Of a stretch of 64,000 nucleotides of DNA, positions 50,111 to 53,168 are shown in pieces. Location: NCBI GenBank assembly GCA_944389495.1, contig CALXMN010000001.1:78012-142011 (forward strand). Reading direction: 5' to 3'. This DNA comes from an uncultured Alphaproteobacteria bacterium. Lineage in GTDB: Bacteria; Pseudomonadota; Alphaproteobacteria; Rs-D84. Both the position numbers and the translations under genes were made by a program. Each line of letters begins with the position of its first letter. The stretch's first letter is position 1. A model generated the notes under the pieces. It searched no databases and was not told where the DNA came from. It saw nothing but the letters and a program-made list of their open reading frames with translations.

Positions 50111-50812
50111 TTACTCGCGCCACGTAACAGAATCAAACAACGCGTTGATGGTATTGCGCAAATTATCGTCATCAAAGAATTGATTTCGTTGACTTTCCGT
50201 GGTGACATTTGTGCCTTCTTCAAAATGCGGAATATATTTTTGAATTGCAAAATTTTTTACCCCATGCAGGTGTAAATCCTGGGCAATTTCCATTAAATCC
50301 ATTTTTGTAACAAAACGCGGATCACAGGTAATACGAACCTCATAGTTTTTGCCGGTTGATTGCCAAACGTCCAAACTGCGCATCATATTATCGTGTGCAA
50401 TATTTTGCCCAACCAGCGTCCCATACTTGTCACGAATTGTCTTGTAATCAAGCCCTATCCAGTCAACCACATCGGCGGCGCGCGCCAATGTTTCCGGATA
50501 AAAACCATTTGTATGCAGTCCGATTGCAAAGCCCAATTCGCGCACGCGACGCATATATTCAATTACTGCATCGCCCTGCATCAATGCCTCGCCCCCGGAA
50601 AAAACGACGGCCTCTAACTTTCCCACACGTGATTTCAACCAATCAAACACCTTGTCTGGGTCATATTCACCGTCGTGTAATGGTATCAGATGGGGATTGG
50701 AACAATACGCACACCGCAACGGACATCCCACCAAAAACAGCACCGCGGCCAATTTCCCGGGATAATCGATTGTTGTGAATGAAACCAATCCACCGATCTG
50801 AATCTCTCTCAT
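50111..50812 (-). CDS. nrdG: Anaerobic ribonucleoside-triphosphate reductase activating protein (radical SAM)
   Basis: GCPLRCAYCSNPHL (CxxxCxxC). Confidence 0.8.
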   Translation of the reverse strand: MREIQIGGLVSFTTIDYPGKLAAVLFLVGCPLRCAYCSNPHLIPLHDGEYDPDKVFDWLKSRVGKLEAVVFSGGEALMQGDAVIEYMRRVRELGFAIGLHTNGFYPETLARAADVVDWIGLDYKTIRDKYGTLVGQNIAHDNMMRSLDVWQSTGKNYEVRITCDPRFVTKMDLMEIAQDLHLHGVKNFAIQKYIPHFEEGTNVTTESQRNQFFDDDNLRNTINALFDSVTWRE

Positions 50813-50815
50813 AAC

Positions 50816-51004
50816 TTATGCAGCTTTTTTCATTAATTCACTGTGGCGTTGACCAGTGGTTAAACTGTTCGCCTCGGTAAAAGTTTTTCTTTCGCAAAAT
50901 TCAGAATATTTTCCAATGTTAAAGTTGGAAACCGGTCTGATGAACCCCATAGAACGTGAAAAAATTTCACACGGTGTTCTTTGCGTATTTTCTGTTGCTT
51001 GCAT
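50816..51004 (-). CDS. Stand-alone glycyl-radical domain of class III ribonucleotide reductase (62 aa)
   Basis: Contains FSRSMGFIRPVSNFNIGKYSEFCERKTF, matching the NrdD C-terminal RVCGY...NxGKxxExxxR glycyl-radical signature. ATG at 51004 is preceded by GGGAGG-N8. It is out of frame with nrdD, whose stop is at 51055. Confidence 0.5.
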   Translation of the reverse strand: MQATENTQRTPCEIFSRSMGFIRPVSNFNIGKYSEFCERKTFTEANSLTTGQRHSELMKKAA

Positions 51005-51054
51005 AATGTTTTCCTCCCTTTCTGTTTGTTGTGTTGTTTTTTTGTGAAACTGGA

Positions 51055-53094
51055 CTATTCCGTTTTTGCTGCGTTTTGATTTGCGGCAATTTCCGCATCG
51101 CATTTTGGACAAAACTCGTACCGACCGGGTAAATATCCGTGTTTTGGACAAATCGAGAATGTCGGCGTAAGTGTCATATACGGAATCTTATAGTTTTCAA
51201 AAATTGTACGAACGATTTTTTCTGCGGCTTCGCCACTGGAAACAGGTTCGCCCATATACAGATGCAACATTGTCCCGCCTGTATATTTACGTTGTAATTC
51301 TTCTTGGTGTTCCAGTGCGACGAACGGGTCGTCTGTATAGTTTACCGGCAACTGGGTCGAGTTTGTATAGTATGGCGCATCGTGCGTACCGGCGGTTATA
51401 ATATCCGGGAAATTTTTGACGTCTGTTTTTGCAAACCGGTACGAGCAGCCTTCCGCAGGTGTGGCCTCAAGATTATACAGATTCCCGGTTTGTTCCTGGA
51501 ACGTGGCCAGATTTTCGCGTATAAAGTCCATTAAATCCAGCACCAATTTTTTCCCCATCGGTGTCGCGATGTTTTCGCGATCGTTTGTAAAATTGCGAAC
51601 CATTTCGTTTGCCCCATTTACACCAATGGTTGAAAAATGATGATCCCAGTTACCAAGATAACGGCGTGTAAATGGATACAACCCACGTTCCATATTTTTG
51701 GATATTATACGACGTTTGATTTCCAATGCATCACGCCCCAAATCCAACAGTCGTTTTAACTCGCGGAAAAGACCTTCTCGGTCACCCTTGTGTGTATACC
51801 CCAACCGCGCCAGGTTAATTGTTACAACGCCAATAGAACCCGTTTTTTCCGCCGAACCAAACAATCCGCCACCACGCTTTAACAATTCGCGCACATCCAA
51901 ACGCAATCTGCAACACATAGAACGCACATCTGTCGGATTCAAATCAGAATTTAAAAAGTTCTGGAAGTTTGGAATACCATACTTTGCCGCCAAATCGAAC
52001 AACGGTTTTACATTTGGATGATTCCACGGAAAATCATTCGTTATATTATACGTTGGTATCGGGAATGTAAATGGCCGCCCCATTGCATCACCTTCGGTCA
52101 TAACCTCAAGAAATGCTTTATTTATCATATCCATTTCGGCCTGCAAATCACCGTATGTAAAATCCATCTGCTTTTTACCAACGAACGGATGTTGCTTTTT
52201 CAAATCTTCTGGACAGGTCCAATCAAATGTAAAGTTAATAAATGGTGTTTGTGTTCCCCATCTGCACGGCACGGCACAGTTAAAGACCAACGTCTGCATT
52301 GCGTTTTTAACGTCTGCATATGACATCTTGTCAATTCTGACATATGGCGCCAAATATGTATCAACCGAAGAAAACGCCTGGGCGCCAGCAAATTCGTTCT
52401 GTAACGTGCCCAAAAAGTTTACCATATGTGAAATTGCGGTTGCCATATGCTTGGCCGGTTCGCATTGCAGATAACCGGGAACGCCATTAAAACCTTCGTA
52501 CAACAGTTCGCGCAACGACCAACCCGCGCAATATCCCGTAAGCCATCCCAAATCGTGAATATGAATTGCGGCGTTTTTGTGCGCCTCGGCAACTTCACGT
52601 GGATACAGATTTAACCAATATTCTGCCGTTACACGTTCGGATGTGCGCAAAATCAGGCCACCAATTGAATATCCAATATTTGCATTTTCCTTGATACGCC
52701 AATTAGAACCGCCAACATAACCCTCGATTACTTCGACGGCATCAACGTATGATTCGCGAATTTCGGTGCGCTTTTGACGATATATAATATATGATTCTGC
52801 GGTCTTATATGCACGCGCATCCATCAGTGCTTCGATAACCGCCTCTTGCACATTTTCGACGGTTGGATTTTTATCCGTGAACTTTATTTCAAGTTTTCTA
52901 AGGGCATTTTGCGTTATATTGACAATTTGTTCATCAGAAATTTCGTGTGTTACGGCAACCGCCTTTTTAATTGCATCAAAAATCTTTTTTGCGTCAAAAG
53001 GAACCGATTCCCCGGAACGCTTTTGCACGATATTCAGACGTGTTGTAAGTGTCGGAATAATCTGTATTTTATTATCATTTTCAGCCGTTGACAT
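51055..53094 (-). CDS. nrdD: Anaerobic ribonucleoside-triphosphate reductase large subunit, lacking the glycyl-radical tail
   Basis: N-terminal ATP-cone (VQKRSGESVPFDAKKI) and C-terminal Zn-ribbon-like ICPKHGY...FCPKCD, after which the ORF stops. Adjacent to nrdG. Confidence 0.75.
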   Translation of the reverse strand: MSTAENDNKIQIIPTLTTRLNIVQKRSGESVPFDAKKIFDAIKKAVAVTHEISDEQIVNITQNALRKLEIKFTDKNPTVENVQEAVIEALMDARAYKTAESYIIYRQKRTEIRESYVDAVEVIEGYVGGSNWRIKENANIGYSIGGLILRTSERVTAEYWLNLYPREVAEAHKNAAIHIHDLGWLTGYCAGWSLRELLYEGFNGVPGYLQCEPAKHMATAISHMVNFLGTLQNEFAGAQAFSSVDTYLAPYVRIDKMSYADVKNAMQTLVFNCAVPCRWGTQTPFINFTFDWTCPEDLKKQHPFVGKKQMDFTYGDLQAEMDMINKAFLEVMTEGDAMGRPFTFPIPTYNITNDFPWNHPNVKPLFDLAAKYGIPNFQNFLNSDLNPTDVRSMCCRLRLDVRELLKRGGGLFGSAEKTGSIGVVTINLARLGYTHKGDREGLFRELKRLLDLGRDALEIKRRIISKNMERGLYPFTRRYLGNWDHHFSTIGVNGANEMVRNFTNDRENIATPMGKKLVLDLMDFIRENLATFQEQTGNLYNLEATPAEGCSYRFAKTDVKNFPDIITAGTHDAPYYTNSTQLPVNYTDDPFVALEHQEELQRKYTGGTMLHLYMGEPVSSGEAAEKIVRTIFENYKIPYMTLTPTFSICPKHGYLPGRYEFCPKCDAEIAANQNAAKTE

Positions 53095-53119: not shown

Positions 53120-53168
53120 ATTCAATATATAGTGGTTGTTTTTACTATTTGATAACAATATATAGTAT
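53120..53168. promoter_or_regulatory. Two NrdR-box-like sites sharing CAATATATAGT, 33 bp apart, 26-75 nt upstream of nrdD
   Basis: ttCAATATATAGTGg at 53121-53135 and aaCAATATATAGTAt at 53154-53168 both fit the NrdR-box core CwAtATaTwG. Confidence 0.4.

Follow-up and report, generated by a model that had tools for sequence, protein, structure and literature searches.

Comparative evidence for a separately encoded glycyl-radical subunit of class III ribonucleotide reductase in Candidatus Enterousia and its relatives

Can a class III ribonucleotide reductase (RNR) have its radical-bearing glycine on a separate polypeptide? The question is raised by a 64,000-nt stretch of DNA, hereafter the window (contig CALXMN010000001.1, positions 78,012 to 142,011 of the forward strand), from a member of Candidatus Enterousia, gut Alphaproteobacteria of the order Rs-D84 whose genomes have been described as smaller than about 1 Mb and whose metabolism as purely fermentative. 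In the window, the nrdD gene stops just past its zinc (Zn) ribbon, and the glycyl-radical loop is found in a small open reading frame (ORF) between nrdD and the activase gene nrdG. An earlier note on this DNA had proposed a genuine two-polypeptide NrdD and had given a recent frameshift or pseudogene as the alternative. The data presented here support the former proposal, and we put the probability that the small ORF encodes a real, separately translated and obligate radical-bearing subunit of a two-subunit class III RNR at about 0.85.

A conserved split between nrdD and a small ORF

All three genes are on the minus strand. The nrdD ORF (53094..51055) encodes 679 amino acids (aa), ending in ...FCPKCDAEIAANQNAAKTE, with a TAG stop codon at 51057-51055. 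It is followed by a 50-nt, A-rich intergenic spacer (51054-51005) that contains a Shine-Dalgarno (SD) sequence, GGGAGG (51018-51013), with an 8-nt spacing to the ATG (51004-51002) of the small ORF. The small ORF (51004-50816) encodes 62 aa in frame +2 relative to nrdD, with the codon of Gly20 at 50947-50945 and a TAA stop codon at 50818-50816. The ATG of nrdG (50812..50111; 233 aa) is located 3 nt past that stop codon, and its product, the radical S-adenosylmethionine activase, matches TIGR02495 (NrdG2; 180.5 bits with a cut-off of 131) and also PF04055. On re-reading, the coordinates and sequences that the earlier note gave for nrdD, the small ORF, the SD sequence and nrdG were all exact. Its RVCGY loop motif has to be corrected to RSMGF in the window and to R[VSA]MG[YF] in the wider subfamily.

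We searched related genomes for the same split, as had been recommended, using the 80 best loci in GTDB contigs with one genome per species and NrdD proteins 82-96% identical to the window's. The split between nrdD and the small ORF was present in 80 of 80 related species and in the window. Clade statistics were calculated from 80 automatically parsed loci, comprising 79 related-species loci and the window, while locus L037, where an in-frame ATG further upstream confounds automatic parsing, was read by hand. Across the parsed loci, the spacer varied between 24 and 59 nt (median 42 nt, 59% A), the small ORF was in frame 0, 1 or 2 relative to nrdD in 34, 22 and 24 cases, and the final nrdD codon specified Q, A, E, K, N, L or H. 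The small ORF was 58-63 aa long, nrdG began 1-19 nt past it, and GGAG was found 3-10 nt ahead of the ATG in every one of the 80. Because the gap lengths and relative frames vary across loci, no single-base correction could fuse the ORFs.

The encoded small protein consists of variable residues 1-8, an R9-T-x-C12-E-x-F-S-R-x-M-G20 loop, an N-F-N-x-G-K..E-F..R motif and a conserved C-terminal extension. We compared 81 Enterousia-like small proteins (80 species and the window), which represent 74 distinct sequences. Their invariant residues are R9, T10, C12, E13, F15, S16, R17, M19, G20, R23, N27-F-N29, G31, K32, E35, F36, R39, F42, E44, N46, G51, R53, H54, L57 and A62. The ratio of nonsynonymous to synonymous change (pN/pS), computed from pairwise substitution counts, was 0.14 for the Gly-loop part, 0.23 for the C-terminal extension and 0.89 for the first ten residues. 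Purifying selection acts on the loop and tail of the small ORF and not on its first ten residues. A conserved loop and tail behind a near-neutral start are what is seen in a protein that is translated and whose N-terminus is free of constraint. Among 5.8 billion proteins searched, 260 homologues of the small ORF were found, with identities of 79-95% and a length of 58-92 aa in every case.

Two halves that lie side by side, point the same way and differ in frame are what a frameshift looks like in one genome, and the window alone could be read as an ordinary single-chain nrdD that was split by a sequencing or assembly indel or by a recent frameshift into a pseudogene. The comparative data refute this alternative. 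The 50-nt gap has no NrdD homology and carries a strong SD sequence and an ATG; 80 independent species assemblies are split with differing gap lengths and frames; the pN/pS of the small ORF is as low as 0.14; and finished genomes of cultured bacteria share the arrangement. We consider such an artefact or recent lesion extremely unlikely. The proposal of a genuine two-polypeptide NrdD is instead borne out by the conserved split, the variable gap and frame, the constant SD sequence and ATG, and the purifying selection.

The cell could also produce one fused polypeptide by recoding, either by read-through, by programmed frameshifting or by a bypass of the 50-nt gap resembling that of phage T4 gene 60, where the ribosome bypasses 50 nt. 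The window's gap has that same length, and among the 80 Enterousia-like loci parsed, 34 have both ORFs in one frame. However, gap length spans 24-59 nt within the clade, family-wide it spans -4 to 175 nt, all three frames are represented, and the last nrdD codon is variable, so that there is no conserved take-off and landing pair. An SD sequence and ATG are conserved ahead of every parsed small ORF, the first ten residues are near-neutral, as expected of a free N-terminus, and the orphan phage copies described below are taken as showing that the small gene is expressed by itself. Bypassing, programmed frameshifting and read-through were each rejected because gap, frame and last codon vary while the SD sequence and ATG remain constant, and a recoded single chain is very unlikely.

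Position of the break and complementarity of the two chains

The large ORF contains an ATP-cone (PF03477, 72 bits), the class III RNR barrel, a Cys-Cys finger loop (C394/C395) and a Zn ribbon (C649-P-K-H652...C662-P-K-C665). C394, C395, C649, H652, C662 and C665 are invariant across 19 divergent large subunits. The finger loop, S-M-C394-C395-R-L, aligns with C-C-R-L of Thermotoga maritima NrdD and, by homology, carries the putative thiyl-radical cysteine. The ribbon aligns with the CxxC ribbons of the P. copri (8p23) and T. maritima (4coi) enzymes, and its residues form the predicted structural Zn site of the C-terminal domain. The barrel, finger-loop cysteines, Zn site and adjacent NrdG of a class III RNR are all found here, and a radical glycine on the same chain is not.

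The two ORFs occupy complementary parts of the same family profiles. The large ORF covers positions 4-652 of the 684 in NCBIfam NF006126 (1025 bits; cut-off 548) and positions 1-529 of the 562 in Pfam NRDD (PF13597; 570 bits). The glycyl-radical loop is absent from it, the NF006126 match stopping at position 652. The small ORF matches positions 649-682 of NF006126 and 532-562 of NRDD. On its own, the small ORF matches the NrdD profiles weakly (E ~3e-4, below the curated cut-offs), but its assignment is beyond chance because of its profile complementarity with the large ORF and its conservation in more than 80 species. Searching the sequences of the Protein Data Bank with phmmer returned no match to the small ORF even at E<=10, because the ORF is too short; the family profiles alone detect it. 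It did not match PF01228 in Pfam (E<=1), where NRDD and one spurious lipoprotein family were the only hits, and in NCBIfam it matched NrdD models only.

The location of the break follows from solved structures. In Prevotella copri NrdD, the glycyl-radical domain comprises residues 676-739, with a structural Zn site, a buried loop carrying Gly711 and a tail that runs across the protein surface. The large ORF can be aligned to this protein through residue 704 of 743, and to T. maritima NrdD through residue 609 of 651. The alignment end and the P. copri domain layout together place the cut within the glycyl-radical domain, past the Zn ribbon and ahead of the Gly loop, in agreement with the proposal made from the window's sequence. 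The Zn ribbon remains on the large chain, and the Gly loop and tail make up the small protein.

Fused relatives of the split enzyme allow the junction to be read directly. In the fused metagenomic locus L122 it reads CEKC-ATTHPDRAPQE-CEVWTRVMGY, and the linker from the ribbon to xCE[VI]W is about 11 residues long both there and in a second fused relative, P0227. Judged by alignment, the break falls in this ~11-residue linker, which joins the Zn ribbon to the xCE[VI][WF]xRxMG motif in fused relatives. The tail of L122, TEAAAGRHGELV, is similar to the extension seen in Enterousia, TEANSLTTGQRHSELMKKAA; this extension is therefore ancestral to the subfamily and not an addition made after the split. 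At the sequence level, the fused relatives (L122, P0227 and 92 fused fragments) indicate that both parts belong together.

We then considered whether the small protein could be an accessory spare or regulator like GrcA, with a large protein that is active alone, for example because its radical is delivered otherwise. The small gene can occur alone in phages, and GrcA/YfiD is a precedent for an autonomous glycyl-radical protein. However, the 120 best matches to a split-large-subunit profile (671-713 aa, including Magnetospirillum, Rhodomicrobium and Burkholderiales) all terminate past the Zn ribbon and have no Gly motif. With no Gly loop on the large subunit here or in those 120 matches, there is nothing to spare. 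Moreover, operonic loci without exception have nrdD and nrdG flanking the small ORF, whose loop residues are invariant. To our knowledge, class III RNRs have no other radical site. An accessory role has a slim chance of being correct, and the evidence favors an obligate subunit.

The two chains could, in principle, be rejoined after translation by a split intein or another ligation that restores a single chain, and split RNR subunit genes of phages and cyanobacteria are sometimes rejoined by inteins. Here, however, the junction tails are short (14 residues past the last Zn cysteine and about 8 ahead of the conserved motif), variable and nearly neutral, and no intein domain was found in Pfam or NCBIfam scans. 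The split intein was rejected on these two grounds, tails that are too short and a domain not found in either scan, and we assign post-translational joining a negligible chance.

The ends of both chains have further features. The small protein ends in Ala-Ala (window 50816-50824) in 78 of the 81 Enterousia-like proteins and in Val-Ala in the other three. Ends in AA and AAE recur in distant operonic homologues (13 and 5 distinct sequences) and are rare in phage orphans. The ssrA degradation tag has a C-terminal Ala-Ala as well, and by analogy the terminal pair may provide programmed turnover, or it may be a docking contact. Many small subunits, phage ones especially, end in strings such as ...KKCCCRK, ...KCGCSK and ...SCTCRGK (small ORFs of L112, L147 and L187), and many large-subunit tails are Cys/His-rich, including ...NDCQCKCGDHE, ...RQQACAC and ...CADCHNE (L051, L063, L070, L079, L080, L094, L130 and L142). 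In class I and II RNRs, cysteine pairs at the chain end relay reducing equivalents, and the Cys-rich ends of large and small subunits may be a comparable candidate redox or metal site. Cys-rich terminal strings are absent from both of the window's tails. On a single 8350-nt ENA contig (P0077), a cysteine replaces the radical glycine (FARSMCFIRPV); this may reflect an error in sequencing or a variant in which the residue is not glycine.

Distribution and genomic context

We used the small-protein profile to search 1.84 billion cluster representatives and obtained 2441 proteins at E<=1e-3, a number that is no census, as short proteins diverge faster and yield more 50% clusters than long ones. 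The best 150 of these 2441 are all 47-118 aa long and nearly all Met-initiated, with the consensus ER[TQ]xCE[VI][WYF][TS]R[VSA]MG[YF]xRPVxxFNxGKxxE. A motif scan of metagenomes was also performed, from which 80 loci were kept. About 49 of the 80 are nrdD - small ORF - nrdG operons whose NrdD is 47-63% identical to the window's. In these operons NrdD always stops past the Zn ribbon, and the gaps range from -4 to 175 nt in all frames. L122 is the sole truly fused locus among the scanned metagenome loci; a second candidate, L143, was rejected, as its apparent fusion came from an alternative frame that stays open over a long distance in a GC-rich contig, and re-analysis showed a split.

The same arrangement is found in cultured bacteria. 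The megaplasmid pHG1 of Cupriavidus necator H16 encodes a 676-aa 'ribonucleoside triphosphate reductase', a 66-aa coding sequence (CDS) and then nrdG, under the locus tags H16_RS32680, H16_RS32675 and H16_RS32670, respectively. The small CDS (L162; NC_005241.1 253274-253474) begins MIHHDQ...ERQPCEVWTRVMGYHRPV... and is labelled nrdD in RefSeq. Paracoccus denitrificans (L163) has the same nrdD - small ORF - nrdG layout, Ralstonia solanacearum has a 58-aa 'hypothetical protein' at the small-ORF position, and small-ORF matches also occur in replicons of Bradyrhizobium, C. metallidurans, Allochromatium and Cereibacter. In C. metallidurans CH34, NrdD and NrdG have been published as Rmet_5137 and Rmet_5139; from this numbering, one gene is located between them. 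The earlier note treated the split for one genome. The split is real, and it is not peculiar to the window, being widespread and, in phages, extending to small genes that stand alone.

Fused forms are common too, with 92 C-terminal fragments from Actinobacteria, Geobacteraceae, Legionellales and other groups. In a neighbor-joining tree of a 125-aa segment with 126 tips, fused and split forms are intermixed, requiring at least 13 changes. The tree suggests that a single origin by fission is not supported, although the segment is short and its resolution low. One split lineage (L123, L125, L126 and L127) has in-frame TGA codons, with 29 in one nrdD, and a spacer of about 170 nt to the small ORF; nrdG was not within the locus in these four. 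The in-frame TGA codons suggest a Mollicutes-like code in which TGA specifies Trp.

Annotation of the small ORF is inconsistent. It is often left uncalled, named 'hypothetical' or entered as an 'nrdD' of about 60 aa, and RefSeq already names some small CDSs 'nrdD'. Several Paracoccus, Cupriavidus metallidurans and Ralstonia records have no feature under the match, in a PLSDB gene table that is incomplete. In genomes of high GC content, long open frames that are spurious overlap the small ORF.

The small gene also occurs by itself. In about 28 of the metagenome loci (class B, L091-L159, e.g. L112:1566-3700), neither nrdD nor nrdG lies within 3.5 kb of the small ORF. By PHROG family, their neighbors are holin, endolysin, Rz-like spanin, terminase large subunit, reverse transcriptase, single-stranded DNA-binding protein and DNA methyltransferase genes, and in prophage and viral contigs the orphan is often located directly after the holin-endolysin-spanin cassette. 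In IMG/VR, 364 stretches encode a relative of the small protein. We examined 79 of these loci (L166-L244) and found that 76 are orphans, with neither nrdD nor nrdG found within 3.5-4 kb. The orphan NrdD-type mini-proteins are 48-125 aa long; in the viral copies no loop residue is lost, and their identity to operonic small subunits is 55-88% (median 78%). The PHROGs family phrog_4132, listed as 'unknown function', matches the viral small proteins. Of three queries of GenBank phage genomes (INPHARED), one returned nothing, and the other two hit only the C-termini of full-length phage NrdDs, weakly, and a single faecal phage that is unannotated, so far restricting orphan copies to metagenomic viral contigs and prophages. 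The orphan copies in phages are independent evidence that the small protein can function in trans. One viral entry, L165 (IMGVR_UViG_3300029906_000277), has a complete Enterousia-like nrdD - small ORF - nrdG operon with a small ORF 94% identical; it may be a misclassified bacterial fragment or a phage with the whole split operon.

Upstream of the window's nrdD, 26-74 nt from its start, are two NrdR-box-like 16-mers (53120-53135 and 53153-53168), each with 3 mismatches to ACACWATATATWGTGT. The number of such matches in the window is not significant alone, as 23 of 100 shuffles reach 3. The boxes are 33 bp apart, a separation that is usual for NrdR operators. Their tandem placement alone suggests that they are a candidate operon operator.

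Proposed mechanism and relation to known systems

The small protein is probably activated separately and replaceable. We have drawn the steps of the proposed mechanism from the established mechanisms of class III RNRs and of pyruvate formate-lyase (PFL) with GrcA. NrdG, together with S-adenosylmethionine, would abstract the Gly20 hydrogen, most simply on the free small protein. Such a free 7-kDa substrate would spare the activase the need for a domain that swings out of the barrel. The Gly hairpin would insert into the barrel beside C394/C395, the conserved C-terminal helix would clamp the hairpin on the surface, and, as in the single-chain enzyme, the radical would be relayed first from Gly to Cys and then to substrate.

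Where a chain bears a glycyl radical, oxygen cleaves it at the glycine. In a split enzyme, such damage would destroy the 62-residue piece only, which could be re-synthesized cheaply while the 679-aa body is reused. The small protein might then be a freely exchangeable radical cofactor subunit: NrdG would activate it away from the enzyme, it would plug into a body that has no radical site, and once damaged by oxygen or quenched it would be shed and a fresh copy would take its place. Phages with the small gene alone would exploit the same modularity, their copies plugging into the host NrdD body to sustain the synthesis of deoxynucleoside triphosphates while the infection proceeds. We hold this account of exchange, repair and phage complementation tentatively, at a little short of even odds.

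We predicted a structure with AlphaFold2, using the concatenated window chains as input together with large-subunit, fused-fragment and small-protein rows. The concatenated chain had a mean predicted local distance difference test score (pLDDT) of 77.7 and a predicted template modeling score of 0.73. The model has a beta-hairpin (692-697/700-703) with Gly699, equivalent to Gly20, at its tip, followed by helices at 709-717 and 723-740, and the pLDDT is 69-91 over most of the small part. Its best structural matches are solved class III RNRs, with TM scores of 0.6-0.74. The model is compatible with the proposed docking.

Several points weigh against a two-subunit enzyme that works as described. 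The quality of the predicted structure is medium, with a pLDDT below 50 in the finger loop, and joining the chains into one biases the model toward canonical docking. Every functional step is one that we infer; cheap repair and separate activation are hypotheses, and the split may be neutral. Finally, the family-wide counts cover sequence clusters and top-ranked loci and not genomes.

The closest known systems differ from the split enzyme in informative ways. The single-chain NrdD/NrdG systems of phage T4, E. coli, T. maritima and P. copri share the barrel, ATP-cone, finger loop, Zn ribbon, Gly motif and adjacent activase, but in these, as in every class III enzyme described, the radical glycine is on the catalytic chain and here it is on a separate 62-aa protein. 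RNRdb lists the structure of class III enzymes as alpha2 and their radical site as 'Gly580 (in alpha)'. GrcA/YfiD of E. coli and Y06I of phage T4 are likewise small stand-alone glycyl-radical loops that dock into the barrel of another polypeptide, and a phage version exists there too. Unlike GrcA/YfiD, the small ORF has no PF01228 homology and matches NrdD profiles only. Furthermore, the enzyme for which GrcA stands in, and which it rescues after oxygen cleavage, has a Gly domain itself; the large chain here has none. Because the partner NrdD is without any Gly loop, the small protein is obligatory. The analogy to GrcA/YfiD drawn in the earlier note therefore stands for a separate radical module and not for a spare to an intact enzyme, as the small ORF has the window's only copy of the Gly loop and is an obligate subunit.

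Two other RNRs are divided between genes. The class II NrdJa/NrdJb of Pseudomonas aeruginosa similarly distributes a catalytic chain over two adjacent genes that have their own starts and are conserved across species. That class is B12-dependent, however, and its detached part consists of IscU-like and Zn-finger domains for re-reduction, not of the radical site. NrdJb is also a sizeable folded protein compared to the ~60-aa loop here, and the likeness is an analogy, not membership in the NrdJab family. The class I nrdA of phage Aeh1 is split by a homing endonuclease gene and still works as two chains. It too is a split RNR catalytic subunit, but a mobile endonuclease gene was inserted there, whereas the Enterousia clade has only a 24-59 nt gap with an SD sequence. 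Full-text literature searches found no description of a split NrdD; as most subscription journals are outside the searchable text, an earlier notice is possible.

These results describe a large natural family in which the radical loop of NrdD is a separate small protein, sometimes encoded by phages alone. A June 2026 review of glycyl radical enzymes (GREs) noted the appeal of a radical module that can be replaced in settings exposed to oxygen. It also stated that formate lyases are the only enzymes known to have spare-part proteins, and that whether other GREs have them is still to be settled. The spare-part question for GREs other than PFL becomes testable in the cultured, genetically tractable C. 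necator H16, P. denitrificans and R. solanacearum. The small ORFs, often uncalled or mislabelled, also have a consequence for annotation, with phrog_4132 as the phage family. The split enzyme offers a natural system for how an activase reaches a buried glycine, and it may represent a cheap-repair strategy for oxygen-sensitive radical enzymes, for example in the gut or in denitrifying cultures. If the exchange account is true, the split enzyme would be the first GRE besides PFL to have a spare-part or exchangeable radical system, and the phage small gene would be a very small auxiliary metabolic gene.

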